NCBI GenBank assembly: GCA_964247135.1
Contig: CAXTTL010000140.1
Span: 1 to 12,630 of the forward strand
Direction of reading: 5' to 3'
DNA: 12,630 bases
Source of the DNA: an uncultured Deinococcales bacterium
GTDB taxonomy: Bacteria; Deinococcota; Deinococci; Deinococcales; JAAFIG01
Made by a program: the position numbers and the translations under genes. Shown piece after piece: positions 1-12,434 of this stretch (its first letter is position 1; each line of letters opens with the position of its first letter). The notes under the pieces were generated by a model. That model did not search any database and had not been told where the DNA came from. It saw only the letters and a program-made list of their open reading frames with translations.

Positions 1-117
1 AAGCCTGTCCTAAAACGAATGCAAACCCCACTCAGAAAATTCGAGTAAATGCTTTCCTTACAGCTTGGAGCTTATAGCCCCAATTACGTCAATCCCCCAA
101 AACCCAAAGGAGACCCC

Positions 118-906
118 ATGTACACCTCCGAATTCACCTACCACAAAGCCTCGAGCGTATCCGACGCGCTGGCGCAACTTGCCTCCAACCCCGATGCGAA
201 ATTGCTGGCGGGTGGACACTCGCTGATTCCAACCATGAAGTTGCGGCTCGCCAGTCCGAGTGCGCTCATTGATGTCTCGAGCTTGCCCGAATTGCGCGGT
301 ATTCGTACCGAGGGCGACACGATCATCATTGGGGCGATGACCACGCACCGCGAACTCGAGTTCTCAAAAGTGCCATTGCTCAGTGAAGTTGCGCCGCTCA
401 TTGGCGATCCGATGGTGCGCAACAAGGGCACGATTGGTGGCGCTCTGGCGCACGCCGACCCGTCCGCCGATTACCCAGCCGCGATTTTGGCTTTAAACGC
501 CAAACTGAAAATCCAATCCTCGAGTGGCTCGAGGGTCGTGACCGCCGATGAATTCTTCCAGGGCATGTTCACCACCGCACTCGCCCCAGGAGAGATGCTG
601 ACCGAAATTCATATTCCAGCCAGCGTGAAAGGTGCAGCTTACGAAAAGTTCGCTCACCCAGCCAGCCGTTACGCGATTGCAGGCGTTGCCGTTGTGGTGC
701 ATTCAGATGGCAGCCTTCGCGCCGCCGTCACGGGTGCGGGCGACCACGCCATGCGCCTCACCAAACTCGAGTCCGAAGGCGTCTCGAGCGCCTGCAAAGG
801 TCTGGTCAGTGCCAGCGACCTGATGGGCGATCACTTTGCCAGCGCCGAGTACCGCGCCCATCTGGTGGACGTGATGGCAAGCAAAGCTTTGGCTCGAGCG
901 AAGTAA
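118..906 (+). CDS. coxM: Xanthine dehydrogenase/aerobic CO dehydrogenase family FAD-binding medium subunit (CoxM/CutM-like), 262 aa
   Basis: AAGGAG at 107-112 precedes ATG 118, a better start than 49. FAD-binding motifs KLLAGGHSLIPTMKLR and IGDPMVRNKGTIGGALAHADPSADYPA, plus C-terminal SAEYRAHL. The family is clear but the substrate is not; large and small subunits are not in the window. Confidence 0.92.
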   Translation: MYTSEFTYHKASSVSDALAQLASNPDAKLLAGGHSLIPTMKLRLASPSALIDVSSLPELRGIRTEGDTIIIGAMTTHRELEFSKVPLLSEVAPLIGDPMVRNKGTIGGALAHADPSADYPAAILALNAKLKIQSSSGSRVVTADEFFQGMFTTALAPGEMLTEIHIPASVKGAAYEKFAHPASRYAIAGVAVVVHSDGSLRAAVTGAGDHAMRLTKLESEGVSSACKGLVSASDLMGDHFASAEYRAHLVDVMASKALARAK

Positions 907-918
907 AATTCTAAACTG

Positions 919-956
919 AAACTGGGGCATCGTTTCTCAAGATGCCCCAGTTTTTT
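919..956. terminator. Intrinsic terminator, likely bidirectional
   Basis: Perfect 13-bp stem AAACTGGGGCATC (919-931) / GATGCCCCAGTTT (941-953), 9-nt loop, T6 at 951-956. Lies between convergent genes ending at 906 and 968. Confidence 0.9.
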
Positions 957-967
957 ATGCCTCGAGA

Positions 968-1702
968 TTACGGGCAGGGCTGATTTGTCATGGCGGCATA
1001 CTGAATCCCACTGACTGCATCGGTCTTGCGGTTGTTCCGAACGCAAGCATGTACATCTGTGGGCAACTTGCCACCCTTTTGTTCGATCATGATTGCCAAC
1101 AAACCAATTGCTGGGGCTGTCGAGAATGACGATCCGGTAATGCCAAGACTCGAGGGCAAAGGCTGACCGAGCAGGCATCGATAGCCCGTAACACTGTCAG
1201 GGCACAAACTCACACCCTGCGTGAACACGTCCGCGTTGGCTCGGGTGTTAAACGCCGCGATTCGGTAAGCGCCGTTGTACCAACCGACCGAAGCCACCGA
1301 GATCACATTGGCTAAACTCGGTTGACCGGTGATGGCAACGCCGCTCGAGTAATTGGCAGGATATTGTGCTGGGGCGCGAGGCGCATTGCCCCCCGAGGCG
1401 AACACGGGCATGTTGTGCCGCACCCGCAGCAACTCGAGCAGCGCGAACATGATGTTGTTCGGCAGTGGGCTGCCAAGGCTCATGTTGATGATGTTGGGCT
1501 GGGTTGGATTGCTTGCAAGCACTTGCATCAAGGCTTTGCCAAGGTCTGAAGCTTTGCAGGTGCCACTCGAGTTGCAAGCCATGTAGCTTTGAAAGGTTAC
1601 ACCTGGCGCGATGGTTTGAATTCAGCTTTTGACGTGCGTGTCGTGTTTGGCAAAACTGTAATTGGGTAGGCATGTAAAAGTATCCGCTGTGTCCACGCCG
1701 AC
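968..1702 (-). pseudogene. Subtilisin-like (S8) peptidase domain, interrupted by an in-frame TGA at 1624-1622 and lacking its own signal/propeptide (open part 968..1621, first ATG 1582)
   Basis: Manual translation reads VGVDTAD (Asp motif), KHDTHVKS*IQTIAPGV (HGTHVA..IAP-type His motif), IINMSLGS, ASGGN (oxyanion Asn), YPANY, VISVASVG and GITGSSFSTAPA (GTSxA-type Ser motif), all in the frame of the upstream regulator. Confidence 0.78.
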
Positions 1703-3088
1703 GGCTTCATAAAACCCTGCGGCTTTCTTAAACCTCGAGATGGCTTCGCTAAAATTCCCACCCGAACTCGAGACCCAACCGATGGTGTTGTACGCGGTGG
1801 CTTTTGCCCATAAGTCGCCCGAACCGTTGTTCAGGACAGATTCGGCGGTCAGTCGCGCTTCGGCGGTTTTGCCCGCACGCCACAACAAGCCCGACTTTAA
1901 CGCCATGATTCTCGAGGTTTGATGCAAGATTGCCAGGTTCTGCACGACTTCCAAAGCCTCTTTGAAACGCCCTGAACGCTCGAGCGCATAAGCGTACAAG
2001 AAGGTACTTTCGGGTTCGGGGTCGATGCCCGTCACGCGTTCGGCGCTGCGAACCTCCTCGAGCAGTGTTATCACTTTGGCAAACTCGAGTTGGTTCATGT
2101 GCATCTGGGCTTGGGCGCAGTAAGCGGTTCTGGCTTTTGCCATGTCGCCCAAACCACCAAAGCCTTGGGTGTCATGATAAATGCGATTGTAAAGTAAAAA
2201 CGCATCTTCAGGCGGGGTCGCTCGAGCCATCGCAATCACCAGGGGCGAGCGTTCGCTGGGGTGATTTTCAAGCCAACTCGAGGCGAGTTCTGGGGTTAGC
2301 ACTCGAGCGCTCGTGTCGATCAAACCTGACATGAGAAGCCTTTCTTGGGCTTCGGCGAGTTCGTTGAGTGTTAACTCGAGCGCATTGCGGATGATCGACA
2401 GATTGGGTTGGGCTTGCAAACTGAGTGCCAGAAAAACACTGCGTTGTTTGACGGACAAATCTTCAATTCCGGCTTTCAAACTGCGCTCGAGATTCTTGTT
2501 GAAATCACTCTTGGTGCTCGAGAGTAAACGCTGCAACCGTGCCAAATTGACAGGCTCGAGTTCGGGCGCTTCGGGCAGTTGATACGCCCGTTCTGCCAGG
2601 GCTTTGGCGGCTTGGGTGTTGTTTTCAAAAAGGTGTGATTCTGCCAGTTTGAGCATGGCAACTTGCGCCCGCTGCGCGAAGGATTCGCGTTTGAGTAACA
2701 CCCAATCCAGCAATTCTGAACTGACCTCGAGATCATCGGGCGGCTTGCCCAAATCGTGCAAGAACGGCGCTTGGTACAACTCGAGTGCCGCTTGAAGGTT
2801 GTCGTTTGCCAGCAATTCGAGGAATTCTTGCGCGTCACAACGAATCAAACTTGGCAAGGGATCAATGCCAGGTTGGCTCGAGATCACCTCACCAGCGCCC
2901 TCTTTTTTAAATTGCGAAAGCACCACGGACAAATTGCTTTTGGCTTTTTTGTCGCCCCAGAACAACTCGGCTAAGTGATCTCTGGTTTGCGCCCCCTCTA
3001 GCGTCAGGTACGCCAGCAACAGCAAAGGCTTGGGTCTGGAAAACCCAATGCCCTCGAGCTTCACCTTGCCGAACGTGATCAGTTGCAC
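1622..3088 (-). CDS. SARP/AfsR-like transcriptional regulator (winged helix + BTAD, second winged-helix-like segment, TPR repeats), 488 aa
   Basis: N-terminus RPKPLLLLAYLTLEG..TRDHLAELFW..KSNLSVVLSQF; BTAD-like CDAQEFL..ALELYQAPFL..LLDWVLLKRE; TPR-like helices AYALERSGRFKEAL, GLLWRAGKTAEA and AYNTIGWV..GNFSEAISRFKKA. GTG start. No Walker A motif seen. Confidence 0.85.
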   Translation of the reverse strand: MQLITFGKVKLEGIGFSRPKPLLLLAYLTLEGAQTRDHLAELFWGDKKAKSNLSVVLSQFKKEGAGEVISSQPGIDPLPSLIRCDAQEFLELLANDNLQAALELYQAPFLHDLGKPPDDLEVSSELLDWVLLKRESFAQRAQVAMLKLAESHLFENNTQAAKALAERAYQLPEAPELEPVNLARLQRLLSSTKSDFNKNLERSLKAGIEDLSVKQRSVFLALSLQAQPNLSIIRNALELTLNELAEAQERLLMSGLIDTSARVLTPELASSWLENHPSERSPLVIAMARATPPEDAFLLYNRIYHDTQGFGGLGDMAKARTAYCAQAQMHMNQLEFAKVITLLEEVRSAERVTGIDPEPESTFLYAYALERSGRFKEALEVVQNLAILHQTSRIMALKSGLLWRAGKTAEARLTAESVLNNGSGDLWAKATAYNTIGWVSSSGGNFSEAISRFKKAAGFYEAVGVDTADTFTCLPNYSFAKHDTHVKS

Positions 3089-3093
3089 ACGGC

Positions 3094-3099
3094 ATTTTA
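3094..3099 (-). promoter_or_regulatory. -10 box TAAAAT, probable leaderless promoter of the regulator
   Basis: Minus strand reads GCAG-TAAAAT-GCCGT-GTG: a TANNNT box 5 nt before the start codon, with no Shine-Dalgarno. This layout is common in Deinococcus-Thermus. Confidence 0.6.
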
Positions 3100-3116
3100 C
3101 TGCGCTTTGCCAAATG

Positions 3117-3135
3117 TTGTTAAGCGCTTGTTAAG
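3117..3135. promoter_or_regulatory. Tandem direct repeat TTGTTAAG-N3-TTGTTAAG (11-bp period), candidate SARP/OmpR-type operator
   Basis: Exact 8-mers at 3117-3124 and 3128-3135 in the 98-bp divergent intergenic region. Confidence 0.55.
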
Positions 3136-3186
3136 GGGTCGTTTTTGGGCGGGTTGCATCCTTTGCTTACCAGAAAGGACGTGCTT

Positions 3187-4515
3187 ATGAAAAAAGGTTT
3201 CAAACTTCTGCCCGCGTTGTTCGCCCTGTCCCTTGGAGGCGTGTTGATGCACAACGCGCCCGCTCAAGCCAAAGATTGTGATTGGAAAGTCAGCGGCAAG
3301 ATCAGCAGCCTGAACCTGTTGCCAGAACTGAAAACCAAGTTTGGCAGCAAGTCCTATCTCGAGAATCTGGAAGTCAAAGTCTCGGAAAAAGAAAAAGTGC
3401 TTGGCATTTGGGGAACGTTTAACGCGTGGGATGTCGTGCGCAGCAACTCGAGCGGGTCGTTTACTGCCAGCAACAGCAAAAACTGTGACCAACGACGATT
3501 TAAGGTCGAGGTGCGGTTTAACGACGATGACCTCGAGATTCACTGGGCAAAATCCACACAAATCCTGACCAAAGACGTGAAGTGGTATACGGTGCTTGAC
3601 GAAACAAATGGAGAACACCCAGCAGGACCAGTCAACCTTGGAGAGTTTACTTTTGGCACCAATAACCTTGACCTAAACGATTACGACGCGCATCACCATG
3701 CGGACATCTGGCAGGCGTATCACATGGTCATCGAGCACTTTAAAGGCATGGGGTCAGAATATGCTTTTAAAAGCAAAATCAAAGTCAAATACCCCAATGA
3801 TAGCGCGATTGTTGGTGCCGCCGAGGACAGTTACGCCAACCCAATCACAAAACATATTTACATTCACAAAGACGCAACCACCGATCAATTTAACCTGGAC
3901 ACGCTGTACCACGAGTTATTTCATGTTTGGGTATACGATCACTTTTCCGGCGAAGGCTGCCTGACCGAAACCCTGCTTATCAACGGCAGTACGCACGGAC
4001 CGGTCAACGACCCTTGCGTTGCGTTTAACGAAGGTGCAGCCGAGTGGGGTATGGGGCAACTCGAGCAGGTCTTGTTTGGCATGACTCCAGAACTGCCGTT
4101 CAGTCGGCAAGACTTGAAAAACAAAGGTGCCACGAACCTGGACTTGGTGCAACGTTTAGATGATGGCTGGCAATCGCTGTTGAGCACCATGACGTTGCCA
4201 GAGTTGAGCAAGTACAACTTTAACGGGACGGGCAACCACATCAGCTTTCAGTCACCCGCCCCAAGTGGATGCAGCAACCCAAGTAATGGCTTTCGCAAAG
4301 TCTTAAATGTCTTTCTCGAGAATCCAGACAAAGGCTTCAGAGCATTCCTTTCCAGAAACGAAACCACCATGGACAGTTTCTTGACCAGAAGCAACGCCAT
4401 TTTGGATAACTTTGGTACAAATTCAGTCAGTGATTTGCAGGTGCAAAACCTATACCTCGATCTGATTGACCCTAGCAAAACCACGCAACCTTCAAGCGTT
4501 TTGTGCGGCGGTTAA
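3187..4515 (+). CDS. Secreted gluzincin-type zinc metallopeptidase, 442 aa
   Basis: AAAGGA at 3174-3179 before ATG 3187. Sec signal peptide MKKGFKLLPALFALSLGGVLMHNAPAQA. HExxH motif YHELFH (3910-3924) and third-ligand motif AFNEGAAEW (~4021-4047). Confidence 0.8.
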   Translation: MKKGFKLLPALFALSLGGVLMHNAPAQAKDCDWKVSGKISSLNLLPELKTKFGSKSYLENLEVKVSEKEKVLGIWGTFNAWDVVRSNSSGSFTASNSKNCDQRRFKVEVRFNDDDLEIHWAKSTQILTKDVKWYTVLDETNGEHPAGPVNLGEFTFGTNNLDLNDYDAHHHADIWQAYHMVIEHFKGMGSEYAFKSKIKVKYPNDSAIVGAAEDSYANPITKHIYIHKDATTDQFNLDTLYHELFHVWVYDHFSGEGCLTETLLINGSTHGPVNDPCVAFNEGAAEWGMGQLEQVLFGMTPELPFSRQDLKNKGATNLDLVQRLDDGWQSLLSTMTLPELSKYNFNGTGNHISFQSPAPSGCSNPSNGFRKVLNVFLENPDKGFRAFLSRNETTMDSFLTRSNAILDNFGTNSVSDLQVQNLYLDLIDPSKTTQPSSVLCGG

Positions 4516-4585
4516 AGGCTTGACTCGATTCAGCATTGCGACTCGCAAGCTCGAGCTTCCGAAAGCTGGAAGCGAAAGGAGATGT

Positions 4586-5173
4586 ATGCAAAACAGTTCC
4601 CACGACAATTCTTACAGCCATTCACACGATCAAATCCATCAAGACAATTTGGCTTCTCAAACCAAAGCGCGTGTGCTGAAAGCCGTTGCTGGCTTATCGA
4701 GACTCGAGCAAAACCGTGTGACTCAGGATTTATTTATTGCTGAAGGTTGGAAGCTCTGGCAGTTGGGCGGCTTTTGTTTTGACGACGGTTCGGTGTTGTT
4801 GGGTTCGGGTTTGGGCTGGCAAACCCTGAGCGCACCTGAAGCTTCCAAGCTTTTGGACGATGAACTCAGGCAGCCGCTCAAGGTTTACCTGAGCTACAGC
4901 TTTGGTGGCAGTGACAGACGCGAAAAACGTACCGTCACCGAGGCACGAATTGAATTCTTGGAGCAAGCCAATTGCTGGAATCTGATGATCGAATACGAAG
5001 CCTTCATGGACTCGCCCTTGTACGGTTTGAAAACCATCAGCTTCAAGAATTTGATAGCGCTCGAGCTACAAAACCTCTGTCTGGATACGGTCAAACCCAA
5101 CCAACGTTGGCGGCTCGAGCAGATTGCCCAGCACCCAGACTGGCTTGGCTTGCGAAGGGGGGCAGCATCATGA
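4586..5173 (+). CDS. Hypothetical protein with His-rich N-terminus, 195 aa, translationally coupled to the downstream PLP enzyme
   Basis: AAGGAG at 4576-4581 before ATG 4586. Its TGA overlaps the next ATG (ATGA, 5170-5173). No family recognised. Confidence 0.7.
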   Translation: MQNSSHDNSYSHSHDQIHQDNLASQTKARVLKAVAGLSRLEQNRVTQDLFIAEGWKLWQLGGFCFDDGSVLLGSGLGWQTLSAPEASKLLDDELRQPLKVYLSYSFGGSDRREKRTVTEARIEFLEQANCWNLMIEYEAFMDSPLYGLKTISFKNLIALELQNLCLDTVKPNQRWRLEQIAQHPDWLGLRRGAAS

Positions 5174-6621
5174 CCTCGAGCACGCTGGACATCAAAGCCA
5201 TCCGCCAACATTTTTTCTTCCCGAAACAAGGTCGGATTGTCACCAACAACGCCGCCAGCAGCCAACCGCCGCGAGAATTGCTCGAGTTGTACCGTTCGCT
5301 CGCGCCTGGTTATGAAAACATTCACCGTGGACAGTCGAGCGCCTCGCAAGCCATGACAAGATTATTCGAGTCCGCTTATGACACCATCGCCAGTTTCTTG
5401 AATGCCTCGAGCCGAGGCAACATTGGGCTTTACCGCAATACCACCGAAGCCATCAATGCCGTGATGTACTCGCTCCTGACCGAATTTCGAGATGGTGACA
5501 ACCTAGTCACGACCGCGATGGAGCACAACTCGAACTACGTGCCCTGGTACGCCATGTGCCGCGAGATTCTGCCGAAATTTGCACGGCGGGCTGAATACCG
5601 CATCGTGCGCTTTGACCCGAACACTGGCGAACTTGACCTCGAGCATCTGGCAGCGCTGATCGACCCCCGCACCAAGCTGGTGTGTTGCACGGGCGCTTCA
5701 AACTTTCTCGGCACGAAAAACCCACTTGGCACCATCCGCCAACTGGCAAACTCGAGCGGTTACGAGCAACCAAACGGCGAGCGACGCTCGTACCTGATGG
5801 TGGACGGCGCACAACTTGTTCCAGGCAATTTCGTTGATGTCCAAGCCCTCGACCTCGAGTACCTGTCGTTTTCGTTTCACAAGATGCTGGCTCCGTTTGG
5901 GATTGGGGTGTTGTACGCCAAAGCGCACCTGCTCGAGTCTTCGTTGCCGTTTTTGTACGGCGGGGACATGATTGCCGAGGGTCGGGTCTTGCCCGAACTG
6001 GTGGAATACAACGCGCTGCCTTGGAAGTACGCGGCTGGTACACCGAACATTCTTGGCACGATAGTCTCGGCGCAAGCCATGCGCTTGCTGCTCGACTTGG
6101 CATTGACGCCCAAACGATTGACTTACTTTCGCAGCGAAAAAGCCATCGAGCAATCCGCAGTCAAAGACGCCATGAATCGCGTGACCGCCTGGAATCAAGA
6201 CCTCACCGCCAGGGCGCTCGAGCGGCTCGAGACCATCCCAGGAATCACCATTTACGGACCGCGCGATGCCACGCGCCGCACCTCGCTGGTCGCCTTTAAC
6301 ATTGCGGGTCACGATCCGTTTGCTTTGGCGCAAGCTCTGAACCAGGCTGGTGTCGAATCGCGGGCGGGTTGTCACTGTGCGACCTTGGCGCACCATGCGC
6401 TTGGCTTGACACCGCCCGCAAGTTGTCGCCTGAGCTTTTACCTCTACAACACGCCACAAGAAGTTGATCTGGCGCTCGATGCACTCGAGGCGATTGTAGC
6501 TGGTCGCGTCAAACGAAAGACCTGGTGGCAGATCAACTTCAAACATCCTCACACTCAACCCCATCGAGATACCTGCTTGCTTGACCGACACGAACATCCG
6601 CAGGTTTCAAACCTCAGTTGA
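5170..6621 (+). CDS. Class V PLP-dependent enzyme, SufS/CsdA-like cysteine desulfurase/selenocysteine lyase, 483 aa
   Basis: Motifs NNAASSQPP, NIHRG, NTTEAIN, MEHNSNYVPW, VDGAQ, SFHKM (PLP Lys at 5881), GGDMI, AGTPNI, RAGCHCA (catalytic Cys loop, 6361-6381) and RLSFYLYNT. Start placed at ATG 5170 rather than 4972. Confidence 0.9.
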   Translation: MTSSTLDIKAIRQHFFFPKQGRIVTNNAASSQPPRELLELYRSLAPGYENIHRGQSSASQAMTRLFESAYDTIASFLNASSRGNIGLYRNTTEAINAVMYSLLTEFRDGDNLVTTAMEHNSNYVPWYAMCREILPKFARRAEYRIVRFDPNTGELDLEHLAALIDPRTKLVCCTGASNFLGTKNPLGTIRQLANSSGYEQPNGERRSYLMVDGAQLVPGNFVDVQALDLEYLSFSFHKMLAPFGIGVLYAKAHLLESSLPFLYGGDMIAEGRVLPELVEYNALPWKYAAGTPNILGTIVSAQAMRLLLDLALTPKRLTYFRSEKAIEQSAVKDAMNRVTAWNQDLTARALERLETIPGITIYGPRDATRRTSLVAFNIAGHDPFALAQALNQAGVESRAGCHCATLAHHALGLTPPASCRLSFYLYNTPQEVDLALDALEAIVAGRVKRKTWWQINFKHPHTQPHRDTCLLDRHEHPQVSNLS

Positions 6622-9443: not shown

Positions 9444-12434
9444 ATGAACTTCCGCAACCTGAAACATGTTTTCGCTACGGTCTTCACCATCGCCCTCGCC
9501 GCGTGCGGTGGGGGTGCGCCGCCCACGCCACCGCCCGTGACCGTCACCATCGGCACGGCGGGCGGCATGGTCAACGGTCCGTCCGGTGCGACGGTCGTCA
9601 TTCCGAACGGCGCACTCTCGCAGGACACGCCCATCGGCATTGCGCAGACGGATGTGGGAGCGCCTGCCCTGTCCGCTGGCACAACCACTTTCGGCGCGAT
9701 GTTCGCCTTCACCCCGCACGGCTCGAGTTTCGCCAAGCCCGTGACGATGACCGTGCCGTTTGACCCAAGCAAAGTACCCGTTGGAACCACGCCCGTATTG
9801 CTCAAGACCAATGCCGCGATGAATGGCTGGGACGTGGTGGCTGGGGCTACGGTGAACGGCAACGTCATGAACGGACAGGTGACGGGCTTTTCGCTCGCCA
9901 TCGTCACACTACCGCCCCTCGAGCGCGGTGCTCCAGTGCGGACAGTGTACGTCGCTAAACTGGACTCGGCTCGCAACCCCGTTGAACCCGTCTTGGAATC
10001 GGACAAGACGATCCAGCCTGATGGCAAGTTGGATAAACCTTATGAATTCGGCACCGCCGAATTCCCCGACCCGAGTGACCCAAACGATGATCCGAATGTG
10101 GCGAATGGGCGGGTCTTTTCCAGCGCAAACGGGGTGACGTACTTTGTTTCGAACGAAGCCCCTCACGGTGAAGGCAGTCGCATCAAGTATGAACAGAAGC
10201 AGGGTTACATCAAGCGTGCCGATAACGCCAAGCTGCAACTGATCGTGACCAAAGTCCGCATGGAGGCACTTGACTTTAATGAAGATGATCTCCTTAAGTT
10301 GTGTACAGCCAAAAAAAACAGTCCAGAGCGCCTTCTTTGCGAAAAAGGTATGCTTGGATGGCTTGAATACAACGTAGATGTTTTCCAGGGTGACAAAGAT
10401 GCTATTGGTAGGCGCATTTTCAAAGGTCTTGCCACTGCCCATTTGGAGGGTTGGAAGAACCATTGGCAGCTTGACGCGACTTTTGCAGGTTCTGAGTCTG
10501 CCAGGCTTTTTGCCGAACCTTTGTGGGATAACAGTAAGTTCAGTCTCGACAAAGACGTAGATAAGGATGGAACGGGTCATCACGCCAAGCTGGAACTCAC
10601 GAAGCCGCTTGTGATCAACATAGACCTGTCCAAGATAACAGCGAACAAAGACCCATCCAACTTGGTGGACGGGGCGTTCACGGTTAAGGCTACAGTGTTT
10701 TCGGATGTCCTTAGCAAAAGATCGGGGGAAAACTACCTTGGTGCCTTTCTGCGCGACCCGCAGAAAGTTGACGGCGACGTGCAGATCATCACCGAAGGAC
10801 TCGAGCCGACCGACCCATCCCCGCTCGGTCCGCCCGCGACCGACCCCAACCTGCCTCCGAGCTGCGCCTCTCTCCCATCGGCAGGAACCCTGAGCTTTAT
10901 CTCGCCCGATTACACCACCGCCGAGTCGGTCGGAGCCGCAGGAGCCGATCTGCTGATCGCCCGCATTGGCGGCAACGCGGGTGAGGTGAGCGCAACCGTG
11001 ACCACCAGCGACGATACCGCCAAGGCGGGGACGGACTACGAGCCGCTGAGCACCACCGTCACCTTCAAGGACGGCGATGACCTGCCGAAGTATGTCAGTG
11101 TGCCGCTGATTTACAGCTCGAGCAGTGAGCCGACCAAAAGCTTTAACGTCAGCTTGTCCAAACCCACTGGCTGCGGCAGCCTTGGCTTGGACAAAACGGT
11201 CGTCAACATCTTGGACGACACCCGTTCATTGCCAACACCGAGCGGTCTTGATCCCAGCTTCGGCAACGGCGGCAAGGTCACGACGGACAAGTTCGGCGGC
11301 AAGAATTCGGCGATGGCGCTGCAAAAGGACGGCAAGATCGTAATGGTCGGCGGCTCGAGCACCGATTTTGTTCTCGCCCGGTACAATGCCGACGGCAGCC
11401 TAGACACGGGCTTCGGCAGCGGCGGCAAGGTCACGACCGATGTCGTGGGCAGCCTCGAGGAACACGCGAACGGTGTGGCGATCCAAGCGGACGGCAAAAT
11501 CGTGGTGGTGGGTGACACGGGTGTGTTCACCAGCCCGAACAAGGACCGCTTCAGTTTCGCGCTCGTGCGCTACAACTCAGATGGCAGCTTGGACACCAGT
11601 TTCGGCATGGGTGGCAAGGTCACCAGCGGCGTGGTTGGGCAGGCTCGCGCGGTCGCACTGCAAGCCGACGGCAAGATCGTGGTCGTTGGAGACACGCTGG
11701 TCTTCGGCAGGATGAATGACTTCTCCGATTTCGTCGTGGCGAGGTACAACACCGACGGCAGCCTCGACTCGAGCTTCGGAAGCAATGGTCAGAATTTTAT
11801 GGATGTCGGCGGCACGAACCAGGCGTTCAATGTCGCCCTTCAGTCCGACGGTAAGATCGTGGTGAGCGGCAGCCCGATTGGTGTCAGCACCAGCGACAAC
11901 CACACCGACATCGCACGCTTTACCTCGAGTGGAAACCCAGATGGCAGCTTCGATAAGGATGCCATGCTCCAGATCAGCGGTCTGCGGGCGGGCGACGGAC
12001 TGGTGATCCAACCAGATGGCAAACTCGTGCTGGTGGGAAATGTTGAAACGGCGATTCCGCCCGCCACCGCCGTCCAGTTTGCCCTAATGCGCCTGGCAGC
12101 GGACGGCAGTCTGGACAATAGCTTCGGCAGCGCTGGTCTGGTCAAAACCGCGTTCGCGGCTCGCAGCGACAGGGCGCGGTCGGTCGCGCTGCAAGCCGAC
12201 GGTAAAATCCTCGTGGCGGGGCAAAGCAACGACTTTTTGTTCGCGCTCGCACGCTACAACCCTGACGGCACGCCAGACTCGAGCTTCCGCTCGGACGGCA
12301 AGCTGACCATCGGGTTTGGCATCCAGGATGGGGCTGAAAGCGTGGCGCTTCAGCCAGACGGCAAGATCGTTCTCGGCGGCTTCTCGCGGAGTGCCTCGAG
12401 CATCGGGTACGCCCTGGCTCGCCTCATTCCCTGA
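9444..12434 (+). CDS. Large surface lipoprotein: ZU5-like domain, unknown domain, Calx-beta, and delta-60 (DUF5122-type) repeat propeller, 996 aa
   Basis: AAGGAG at 9432-9437; lipobox LAAC. ZU5-like TIGTAGG..VVIPNGAL..FTPHGSSFAKPVTMTVPF; Calx-beta GTLSF..TAKAGTDY..TVTFKDGD..EPTKSFNVSLS; seven QxDGK(I/L) repeats. Confidence 0.88.
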   Translation: MNFRNLKHVFATVFTIALAACGGGAPPTPPPVTVTIGTAGGMVNGPSGATVVIPNGALSQDTPIGIAQTDVGAPALSAGTTTFGAMFAFTPHGSSFAKPVTMTVPFDPSKVPVGTTPVLLKTNAAMNGWDVVAGATVNGNVMNGQVTGFSLAIVTLPPLERGAPVRTVYVAKLDSARNPVEPVLESDKTIQPDGKLDKPYEFGTAEFPDPSDPNDDPNVANGRVFSSANGVTYFVSNEAPHGEGSRIKYEQKQGYIKRADNAKLQLIVTKVRMEALDFNEDDLLKLCTAKKNSPERLLCEKGMLGWLEYNVDVFQGDKDAIGRRIFKGLATAHLEGWKNHWQLDATFAGSESARLFAEPLWDNSKFSLDKDVDKDGTGHHAKLELTKPLVINIDLSKITANKDPSNLVDGAFTVKATVFSDVLSKRSGENYLGAFLRDPQKVDGDVQIITEGLEPTDPSPLGPPATDPNLPPSCASLPSAGTLSFISPDYTTAESVGAAGADLLIARIGGNAGEVSATVTTSDDTAKAGTDYEPLSTTVTFKDGDDLPKYVSVPLIYSSSSEPTKSFNVSLSKPTGCGSLGLDKTVVNILDDTRSLPTPSGLDPSFGNGGKVTTDKFGGKNSAMALQKDGKIVMVGGSSTDFVLARYNADGSLDTGFGSGGKVTTDVVGSLEEHANGVAIQADGKIVVVGDTGVFTSPNKDRFSFALVRYNSDGSLDTSFGMGGKVTSGVVGQARAVALQADGKIVVVGDTLVFGRMNDFSDFVVARYNTDGSLDSSFGSNGQNFMDVGGTNQAFNVALQSDGKIVVSGSPIGVSTSDNHTDIARFTSSGNPDGSFDKDAMLQISGLRAGDGLVIQPDGKLVLVGNVETAIPPATAVQFALMRLAADGSLDNSFGSAGLVKTAFAARSDRARSVALQADGKILVAGQSNDFLFALARYNPDGTPDSSFRSDGKLTIGFGIQDGAESVALQPDGKIVLGGFSRSASSIGYALARLIP
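11247..12431 (+). repeat. Seven ~55-aa delta-60-type repeats (LDxSFG..ALQxDGKIVVxG..FxLARYNxDG)
   Basis: QKDGKI, QADGKI, QADGKI, QSDGKI, QPDGKL, QADGKI, QPDGKI. A 7-bladed beta-propeller is inferred. Confidence 0.88.

Follow-up and report, generated by a model that had tools for sequence, protein, structure and literature searches.

Two open reading frames on the minus strand of the window (i.e., the whole 12,630-nt stretch of DNA analyzed), 1622..3088 and 968..1582, lie in one reading frame, which raises the question whether they are a regulator–protease fusion interrupted by one stop codon or what is left of two genes. Translation of 968-3088 gave 488 residues, a TGA at 1624-1622, 13 sense codons, and the ATG of the 204-aa ORF, and readthrough of the TGA would give a product of 706 aa; the first-pass annotation had reported the same arrangement, and its junction string was identical to ours. 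It had also described a TPR-type regulator followed by a subtilisin domain, and in Pfam the first part matched TPR families and the second matched Peptidase_S8. Three explanations had been offered, namely a deletion followed by a nonsense change (e.g., TTA to TGA), a sequencing error in a real fusion, and regulated readthrough. Comparison with relatives points to the first, and we regard the window, with a probability of about 0.88, as carrying the scar of one internal ~1.77-kb deletion across two adjacent genes. The coordinates of the features are given in Table 1.

Table 1. Features of the locus and its flanks, in window coordinates
Feature	Position	Strand	Details
CoxM-like FAD-binding subunit gene (flanking)	49..906	+	Pfam FAD_binding_5, E 8.4e-54; convergent with the subtilase remnant
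Subtilase remnant past the stop, 217 codons + TAA	968..1621	-	NMSLG, SGGN, and GSSFS motifs
TGA stop	1622..1624	-	Leu (7), Ile (2), or Val (1) at this position in 10 aligned intact homologues
24 subtilase-derived codons, tail of the 488-aa ORF	1625..1696	-	HDTHV (His 482 = 1645-1643); match residues 293-316 of the G002 subtilase
Deletion junction	1696..1697	-	Regulator GGC / GTG subtilase; flank comparison with G002, G011, and G008
Part derived from a SARP-like/TPR regulator (codons 1-464; predicted winged-helix and BTAD-like head)	1697..3088	-	Intact orthologues 722-724 aa
Promoter-like site TTAACA-18-TAAAAT	3094..3123	-	Ends 5 nt before the regulator GTG start (3088); consensus match only
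Tandem box GTTAAG-N4-TGTTAAG (two direct repeats, 11-nt period)	3119..3135	+	Between the regulator and the divergent secreted HExxH-protein gene
Divergent gene (flanking), secreted protein with HELFH (HExxH) motif	3145..4515	+	Without Pfam family

In the relatives, the SARP-like/TPR regulator gene is followed by a separate gene for a lipoprotein-type subtilase of 536-543 aa. The two genes are intact, separate, and adjacent in G002 (on two contigs with a 99-nt overlap), G008, and G011, and intact on separate contigs in G003. This longer regulator with a separate S8 gene, together with a Leu codon at the position of the stop (CTG in G002, TTA in G003), bears out the deletion followed by a nonsense change; the first-pass annotation had named such an arrangement in relatives as refuting a fusion. 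Two flanking genes serve as synteny anchors: the CoxM-like gene is 94% identical to the neighbour of the intact subtilase gene in G002, and the HELFH-encoding gene shares 89% identity with its counterpart that runs divergently from the intact regulator in G002. At 1697/1696, regulator codon 464 abuts subtilase codon ~293, and the sequence common to both sides of the junction is only a G or an imperfect GGY-G (1-4 nt). Compared with G002, G011, and G008, the window lacks 1,766, 1,774, and 1,762 nt, respectively. Lost with this segment are the C-terminal 260 residues of the regulator, the intergenic promoter/operator-like region including a second tandem box, and the lipobox, the N-terminal and propeptide-like region, and strand beta-1 of the subtilase. 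The first-pass annotation had rightly pointed out that the readthrough product has no export signal; the subtilase lipobox lies in the deleted segment. CTCGAG sites were considered as the cause of the deletion and rejected, the nearest being at 1734-1739 and 1566-1571, away from the join; a literature search returned no paper on CTCGAG as a highly iterated palindrome.

The ancestor would have carried a 724-aa regulator gene followed on the same strand by a 536-aa lipoprotein-type subtilase gene. One deletion would have fused the two, in frame by chance, taking the last 260 codons of the regulator, the intergenic region, and the subtilase from its lipoprotein signal through its first core strand, and the Leu codon 24 codons past the join would have become TGA. 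Because the stop falls at this distance from the join, translation is predicted to yield a shortened regulator of 488 aa that ends in a disordered foreign tail of 24 residues, and the 217 codons past the stop would be an untranslated, non-functional subtilase remnant. The event is probably recent and would have inactivated both genes, the nonsense change presumably following the deletion. Window-specific replacements were not in excess in either part (regulator 13 vs 7, subtilase part 6 vs 4; both not significant).

The regulator-derived part is 88.8-91.4% identical to the regulators of G002 and G003 and to P0002 over 463-464 residues, and all three extend 260 residues beyond it. Pfam TPR_14 was detected in the 488-aa ORF at 27 bits (cut-off 23.5), and TPR_12 in the intact P0002 at 59.6 bits (cut-off 30.1), in the region lost from the window. 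The label SARP/BTAD given in the first-pass annotation has indirect support only: neither BTAD nor Trans_reg_C matched the 488-aa ORF in Pfam at E ≤ 0.1, and regulator residues 20-171 align with residues 27-179 of P0071 (E 2e-16), in which BTAD was found at residues 104-234 (45.5 bits) and Trans_reg_C at residues 26-80 (20.7 bits, below the 26.2 cut-off). An NCBIfam search gave nothing above cut-off, and a PDB sequence search with the regulator profile returned TPR proteins only. Structure searches with the 488-aa model likewise returned only TPR proteins, which filled the lists, so that these searches bear little on a SARP fold for N-terminal residues 1-140. The AF2 model of the 488-aa product had a pLDDT of 89.1; its 24-residue subtilase-derived tail, at a pLDDT of about 31, is predicted to be disordered. 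The truncated regulator still has its putative DNA-binding head plus some four TPR-like helix pairs, and it could be partly active.

The subtilase-derived stretch (971-1696, 242 residues) shares 91.3% identity with P0038 and 82.6% with the G002 subtilase. Past the stop, the remnant lacks a start context, a signal peptide, and the His, and Peptidase_S8 matched it at E 2.8e-08 over profile positions 76-273 of 288. Of the active-site residues proposed earlier, the candidate catalytic His at 1645 was confirmed, as H482 aligns with His64 of subtilisin BPN' and is invariant in 27/27 family representatives; lying upstream of the TGA, it is separated from the catalytic Ser. The oxyanion Asn and the Ser had been placed beyond the stop, and both N568 (1387-1385; Asn155 in BPN') and S654 (1129-1127; Ser221) were indeed located there and are invariant in the same 27 representatives. 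The assignment of a catalytic Asp at 1693 had to be given up: by manual count along the alignment, Asp 466 (1693-1691) aligns with the non-catalytic Asp36 of BPN', and of the 11 intact homologues in alignment A1, 5 (including G002) have Gly there and one more has a gap. The subtilase sequence of the window starts at the equivalent of BPN' residue 35-36. The family motif G-G-G aligns with D/G32-S/T-G of BPN', its first G corresponding to Asp32 and lying on the deleted side; this position is Gly in 24 of the 27 representatives, and the catalytic Asp expected at the end of strand beta-1 is missing from the remnant. Intact homologues have a lipobox (L-V-G-C), a pro-subtilisin-like N-terminal region, and beta-1 at residues 285-290; in the window all three are deleted, which leaves the alpha/beta core incomplete and without propeptide or export signal.

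A functional fusion would require that regulated readthrough or recoding of the TGA yields a TPR-gated cytoplasmic protease, for which it may be said that the parts are in frame and that the His, Asn, and Ser motifs survive. However, among 71 homologues from a search of 5.8 billion clusters none was fused and none covered more than 76% of the 706-aa product, and the nearest match to each part is a protein of its own, P0002 (724 aa, 92% identity) for the regulator and P0038 (537 aa, 91%) for the subtilase (longest contig listed for each, 22,141 nt). A search among longer proteins (1,237-3,530 aa) gave 0 matches in 1,942 candidates, which is weak evidence with the tool used. The degenerate back-translated junction peptide had 0 matches in metagenome_contigs, from which records of the window's own genome were possibly excluded; with the same reservation, genome_contigs gave one match, in an Anaerolineae MAG, which was dismissed as chance since its flanks were unrelated. 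Because no fused homologue was found, a sequencing error in a real fusion is left without support. This genome uses TGA as a regular stop codon: it terminates 485 of 1,320 open frames of at least 400 codons. Selenocysteine insertion or other recoding was rejected, as an Rfam scan of the window gave 0 matches, TGA is a common stop, and relatives have Leu, Ile, or Val at the homologous position, not Cys or Sec; no recoding signal was found in the window and no conserved stop at that position in the aligned homologues, and other paralogues are free of internal stops. Furthermore, the deletion took the central strand and the folding-chaperone-like propeptide region, and the subtilase-derived tail is modelled as disordered. 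We therefore consider a readthrough protease very unlikely, and the least probable of the readings weighed here.

The contig could instead misjoin two places of an intact locus in an organism that has both genes whole. The window belongs to a fragmented metagenome-assembled draft genome (386 contigs, 84% complete), contig breaks fall within or next to this regulator gene in the G002 and G003 assemblies too, and the junction support is thin: a 225-nt public contig of low depth (X1; 1 mismatch; 1679-1903) passes the join by 18 nt, below the 31-nt criterion of the comparison tool, and it is perhaps from the window's own source sample and thus not independent support. Against an artefact, this contig does pass through the join, the shared sequence at the junction is far below what misleads a k-mer assembler, and a search of the other contigs of the assembly did not turn up the lost 1.77 kb, which is weak evidence as the assembly is incomplete. 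Public contigs of relatives have 2,200 letters in the place of 355 letters of the window (X2), and in X3 and X4 the likeness of a contig to the window stops at 1696 and intact regulator sequence continues from there; among the eight public runs listed, none contained half of the sequence words. Taken with this evidence, a misjoin is improbable. If the deletion is real but the TGA arose as an error of base calling or of the consensus, the locus would encode a 706-aa accidental chimera, probably misfolded. The TGA is one base from the TTA codon of G003, and 1622-1624 lies outside every near-identical public contig, X1, among the four runs compared, giving no cover at 1540-1633. Consensus errors are rare in short-read assemblies, however, and even an open frame would give a subtilase part without beta-1, propeptide-like region, and export signal, with the biology little changed; we hold such an error to be slightly less probable than a misjoin.

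As a deletion scar, the locus is of an already known kind and ordinary. It resembles chimeric pseudogenes in that same-strand neighbours meet at a point where they have hardly any sequence in common, the stretch between is gone, synteny persists on both sides, and a premature stop follows, and nothing essential sets it apart from them. The join in frame gives it the look of a designed fusion; with odds of 1 in 3, this needs no special explanation. An in-frame "hidden fusion" over a single stop can be resolved by one comparison with close relatives, which in this case reduced it to an ordinary pseudogene. Annotations should mark the 488-aa and 204-aa ORFs as what is left of two genes rather than list them as a regulator and a small peptidase.

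The subtilase family departs from BPN', which belongs to peptidase family S8A, in its mostly Gly residue at the Asp32 position and in the Asp or Glu following the His, and Pfam aligns it from profile position 73-76 on, while the catalytic His, Asn, and Ser are shared. Asp or Glu stands directly after the catalytic His in 23 of the 24 representatives with Gly at the Asp32 position, and the three representatives with Asp32 retain the usual His-Gly; this covariation of Asp32 to Gly with Gly to Asp or Glu after the His is of note. It would mean that the catalytic acid of the clade has been relocated within the protein structure, or that these subtilases are natural equivalents of engineered anion-triggered subtilisins. 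The best PDB sequence matches of the family are such BPN' variants (PDB 6ube, 3f49, 3bgo), because Gly replaces Asp32 in them (I-L-G-T-G aligns with I-I-G-G-G); these are laboratory constructs, and the natural family may likewise be crippled or anion-dependent, or may use another acid. In the available text of PMC1274311, subtilisin-like proteases are described as expanded in D. radiodurans (10 vs 2), and "SARP" is there an unrelated eukaryotic term. The papers listed on subtilase pseudoproteases deal with Clostridioides Csp and Plasmodium proteins. A model of an intact homologue matched pro-subtilisin E, pro-Tk-subtilisin, SUB1, and fervidolysin (Foldseek E 6e-13 to 1e-10; 430-530 alignment columns).

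AfsR-type "large" SARPs combine a SARP part with an NB-ARC ATPase and TPRs, and a tandem direct-repeat operator with an 11-nt period by the target promoter is a feature of Streptomyces SARPs. The window regulator is similar in its N-terminal ~170 residues, which are homologous to BTAD/Trans_reg_C proteins, in its C-terminal TPRs, and in the box of 11-nt period by the neighbouring genes. It differs in that no NB-ARC/AAA ATPase module was found in it, although paralogues in the same genomes have one, in giving no direct Pfam match to BTAD or Trans_reg_C, and in the loss of its last 260 residues. The tandem box was matched once in the window (0.01 expected), the sole strict match in the 5.09-Mb genome. 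As GTTWAG-N4-TGTTAAG, it was found upstream of the subtilase gene in 4/4 relatives examined (G002, G003, G008, and G011), and the window, G002, and G003 also carry it upstream of their divergent gene. With its direct repeats of SARP-type 11-nt period, it is a putative operator. The intact module of the relatives is more interesting than the scar. The conserved box is common to the two neighbouring secreted-hydrolase genes. Tentatively, and with more doubt than confidence, a SARP-like/TPR regulator that lacks an ATPase, its locus-specific tandem box, and the two secreted hydrolase genes that the box precedes, one of them from the small Gly32-type subtilase clade, may form an undescribed module. 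On the boldest reading, the truncated regulator would still act to some extent at the box that is left before the divergent gene. Two promoter-like sites were found in the region (0.8 expected), and the true start of the divergent gene is likely near 3181-3187.

Translation of the window bore out the first-pass annotation's description of two open reading frames (ORFs) sharing a single reverse-strand frame: 488 residues are encoded by 3088..1625, the TGA lies at 1624-1622, and 13 sense codons lead from it to the ATG of a 204-aa ORF ending at 968; the junction string quoted there matched the translation exactly. TPR families were the sole Pfam matches of the first ORF, a SARP-like regulator, and the second ORF matched Peptidase_S8 (E 2.8e-08) in an alignment beginning at position 76 of the 288 profile positions.

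The 706-aa readthrough product (X at the stop) was searched against 41 genomes, the window's own (G000) included, and its two halves matched different genes. Residues 1-465 matched open frames of 708-727 aa (90% in the relative G003, 89% in G002, and 62% in G011 and G008), and residues 464-706 matched separate open frames of 543-557 aa over their last 243 residues (identity 83% in G002, 80% in G003, 59% in G008, 48% in G011); only in the window did a stop lie inside the match. According to the ORF lists, the relatives' regulators have 722-724 aa (the G003 gene leaves its contig end after 694 residues). A same-strand subtilase gene begins 85-107 nt beyond the regulator gene and encodes 536-543 aa, with an N-terminal lipoprotein-type signal ending in L/I-x-G-C. 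The G002 locus is continuous, its two contigs overlapping by 99 nt, and its outer neighbours on both sides are those of the window (a CoxM-like FAD subunit, 94% identity; a divergent secreted HELFH-motif protein, 89%), so that the window departs from its relatives only inside the locus.

At the join (1697|1696), regulator codon 464 abuts subtilase codon 293 (G002 numbering). The window reads ...GTC GGC | GTG GAC...; in G002, GAT CAA follows GGC in the regulator and ...GGC GGT precedes GTG in the subtilase, and the sequence common to both sides comes to one G, or an imperfect GGY-G. The missing DNA, 1,766 nt in G002 coordinates (1,774 nt in G011, 1,762 nt in G008), comprises 260 regulator codons, the intergenic region, and 292 subtilase codons; the lost part of the regulator includes the best-scoring TPRs (residues 567-633 of the homologue P0002), and the chance of an in-frame join was 1 in 3. 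Internal deletion, a familiar and frequent type of event, made the locus a chimeric pseudogene. The first of three earlier proposals, a deletion followed by a nonsense change, was correct down to the guessed TTA-to-TGA route, and relatives keep separate intact genes. The codon at the TGA position is CTG in G002 and TTA in G003, both Leu, and the residue there is Leu in seven, Ile in two, and Val in one of ten aligned intact homologues; TTA to TGA takes one base change.

The other two proposals, a sequencing error in a real fusion and regulated readthrough, gained no support, as no fused homologue was found. Among 71 homologues of the readthrough product (E ≤ 0.001; 5.8 billion clusters) none was full-length, coverage reaching at most 76%: regulators of ~700-747 aa covered 56-76% and seventeen subtilases of 533-545 aa 34-35%, the closest pair being P0002 (724 aa, 92%) and P0038 (537 aa, 91%), with 22,141 nt as the longest contig recorded for each. 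Of the 71, only the window's own 488-aa protein was truncated. A size-restricted search for fused proteins, 1,237-3,530 aa long, gave no hit and counts as weak evidence, and the junction peptide pattern had no relevant match in two public collections. Against readthrough, the Rfam search of the window gave no match, and TGA is an ordinary stop in G000, where it terminates 485 of 1,320 open frames of at least 400 codons, as well as two further long ORFs in the window; paralogous regulators of the same genome contained no internal stops.

That misassembly produced the join was considered very improbable, given that only 1-4 nt are common to both sides and a k-mer assembler would have no reason to join them. 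Eight public sequencing runs had words in common with 1300-2100, none reaching half of the words, and four were compared with 600-3400. One run, possibly the window's own source sample, held a 225-nt contig with one mismatch that spans 1679-1903 and extends 18 nt beyond the join into the subtilase side, short of the 31-nt bridging criterion. A 5,794-nt contig of ~87% identity from another had 2,200 letters against the window's 355 (1495 to 1851), and in the remaining two, similarity stopped exactly at 1696 and the contig continued with codons for the intact regulator's next residues. No other contig of the assembly (84% complete) yielded the deleted protein segments. No near-identical contig covered 1540-1633 in the four runs, and the TGA is known from the assembly alone.

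In the AlphaFold2 model of the 488-aa ORF, residues 1-465 were confident (mean pLDDT 89.1) and the subtilase-derived tail (466-488) was disordered (pLDDT ~31). The subtilase-family profile was aligned with subtilisin BPN', placing the family's H on His64, N on Asn155, S on Ser221, and I-I-G-G-G on V-I-(D/G)32-(S/T)-G; this family therefore has Gly where the canonical Asp would stand, at a position within the deleted DNA. The Asp at 1693 (D466), previously taken as catalytic, aligns with the non-catalytic Asp36 (counted along the BPN' alignment), and its position holds Gly in 5 of 11 intact homologues and is gapped in a sixth. The model of the intact G002 subtilase (pLDDT 87.8, pTM 0.88; strand beta-1, residues 285-290; His helix, 310-321) matched unprocessed pro-subtilisins, SUB1, and fervidolysin in alignments of 430-530 columns, which makes a propeptide-like domain probable in its N-terminal part. 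The window's remnant is devoid of signal, propeptide-like region, and beta-1, and the stop parts its His from its Ser. Since subtilisin folding depends on the propeptide, the fragment should not fold, even with the stop read through.

With the intact G002 subtilase (L015 599-2206), 122 proteins were found, of which 26 mostly near-full-length representatives with the best scores were aligned together with it; fragments, multidomain proteins, and weaker matches were dropped. Position 290, the Asp32 site, was Gly in 24 of the 27 and Asp in three. The residue after the catalytic His was Asp in 21, Glu in two, Ser in one, and Gly in three; Asp or Glu stood there in 23 of the 24 proteins with Gly at the Asp32 site, and the three with Gly were exactly those with Asp at 290. 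The covariation suggests that the catalytic acid has moved, or that engineered anion-triggered subtilisins have a natural analogue here, and may reflect a single evolutionary event, because the 27 sequences are related to one another. Engineered anion-triggered subtilisins without Asp32 were the family's best PDB sequence matches.

Replacements specific to the window or to its sister were counted where outgroups agreed. Neither the subtilase part (6 window-specific versus 4 sister-specific, 205 columns) nor the regulator part (13 versus 7, 391 columns) differed significantly, and one family-invariant residue was altered in the window (Ser to Asn in Y-P-A-S-Y); by these counts, the deletion looks recent. 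The locus appears dispensable in the genus, as the same-genus genomes G004 (79% complete) and G005 (92% complete) gave paralogue-level matches only, for both genes and with these queries.

Among the four relatives, the intergenic DNA has diverged except for three elements: a box, GTTTAGA-nnn-TGTTAAGA, of two direct repeats with an 11-nt period, TAnnnT 10 nt downstream of it, and the ribosome-binding site. The tandem box is thus kept upstream of the subtilase gene in all four. A strict form, GTTWAG-N4-TGTTAAG, also precedes the divergent HELFH-protein gene in the window, G002, and G003, and occurs only once in the 5.09-Mb genome G000. Operators of SARP activators have the same tandem direct-repeat architecture, and the box is probably the regulator's operator. 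Residues 20-171 of the regulator aligned (E 2e-16) with a protein carrying Pfam BTAD and a sub-threshold Trans_reg_C, neither of which matched the window's protein directly; structure searches with the regulator model were swamped by TPR matches. The regulator would activate both adjoining secreted-hydrolase genes; of the two boxes, the window has lost the subtilase-proximal one and retains the other.

Coordinates of tandem boxes and of regulator-subtilase pairs in the window, in its genome (G000), and in loci of relatives (L-numbers)
Feature	Location	Strand	Basis
GTTWAG-N4-TGTTAAG box	window 3119-3135	+	pattern match
GTTWAG-N4-TGTTAAG box	L015 536-552		pattern match
GTTWAG-N4-TGTTAAG box	L016 4346-4362		pattern match
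GTTWAG-N4-TGTTAAG box	L013 4477-4493		pattern match
GTTWAG-N4-TGTTAAG box	L014 4216-4232		pattern match
GTTWAG-N4-TGTTAAG box	L003 1814-1830		pattern match
GTTWAG-N4-TGTTAAG box	L002 529-545		pattern match
Regulator + subtilase, directly adjacent	G000:C185 4317-8865		
Regulator + subtilase, directly adjacent	L031 (G030:C21) 1986-6330		
Regulator + subtilase, one ORF between	L032 (G034:C12) 1766-6173		

The HELFH-motif secreted protein (3145-4515, forward strand) belongs to no Pfam family; its gene, with the same upstream box as the relatives' subtilase gene, is a possible second target for the regulator. On the reverse strand, a promoter-like TTAACA-18-TAAAAT (3094-3123) stops 5 nt short of the GTG start codon of the regulator, so that an mRNA made from it would be leaderless or nearly so; the -35-like hexamer shares bases with the tandem box of the opposite strand. 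Paralogous or orthologous pairs in which a same-strand subtilase lipoprotein gene follows a SARP-like regulator, whether or not the latter has an AAA/NB-ARC module, recur across the order; their subtilases have canonical D-T-G / H-G-T motifs.

The palindrome CTCGAG, which had no part in the join, occurs 82 times in the window (3.4 expected) and 33,925 times in G000 (6.7 per kb), where it is the commonest hexamer at ~25 times the mononucleotide expectation; GAGCTC, GGGCCC, CGGCCG, AGGCCT, CGTACG, and GGATCC occur 0-7 times, and loci of family relatives hold 3.6-8.5 CTCGAG copies per kb. In a 996-aa ORF (9444-12434, forward strand), ZU5 and Calx-beta stand together with six DUF5122 beta-propeller repeats, a combination unusual in bacteria.
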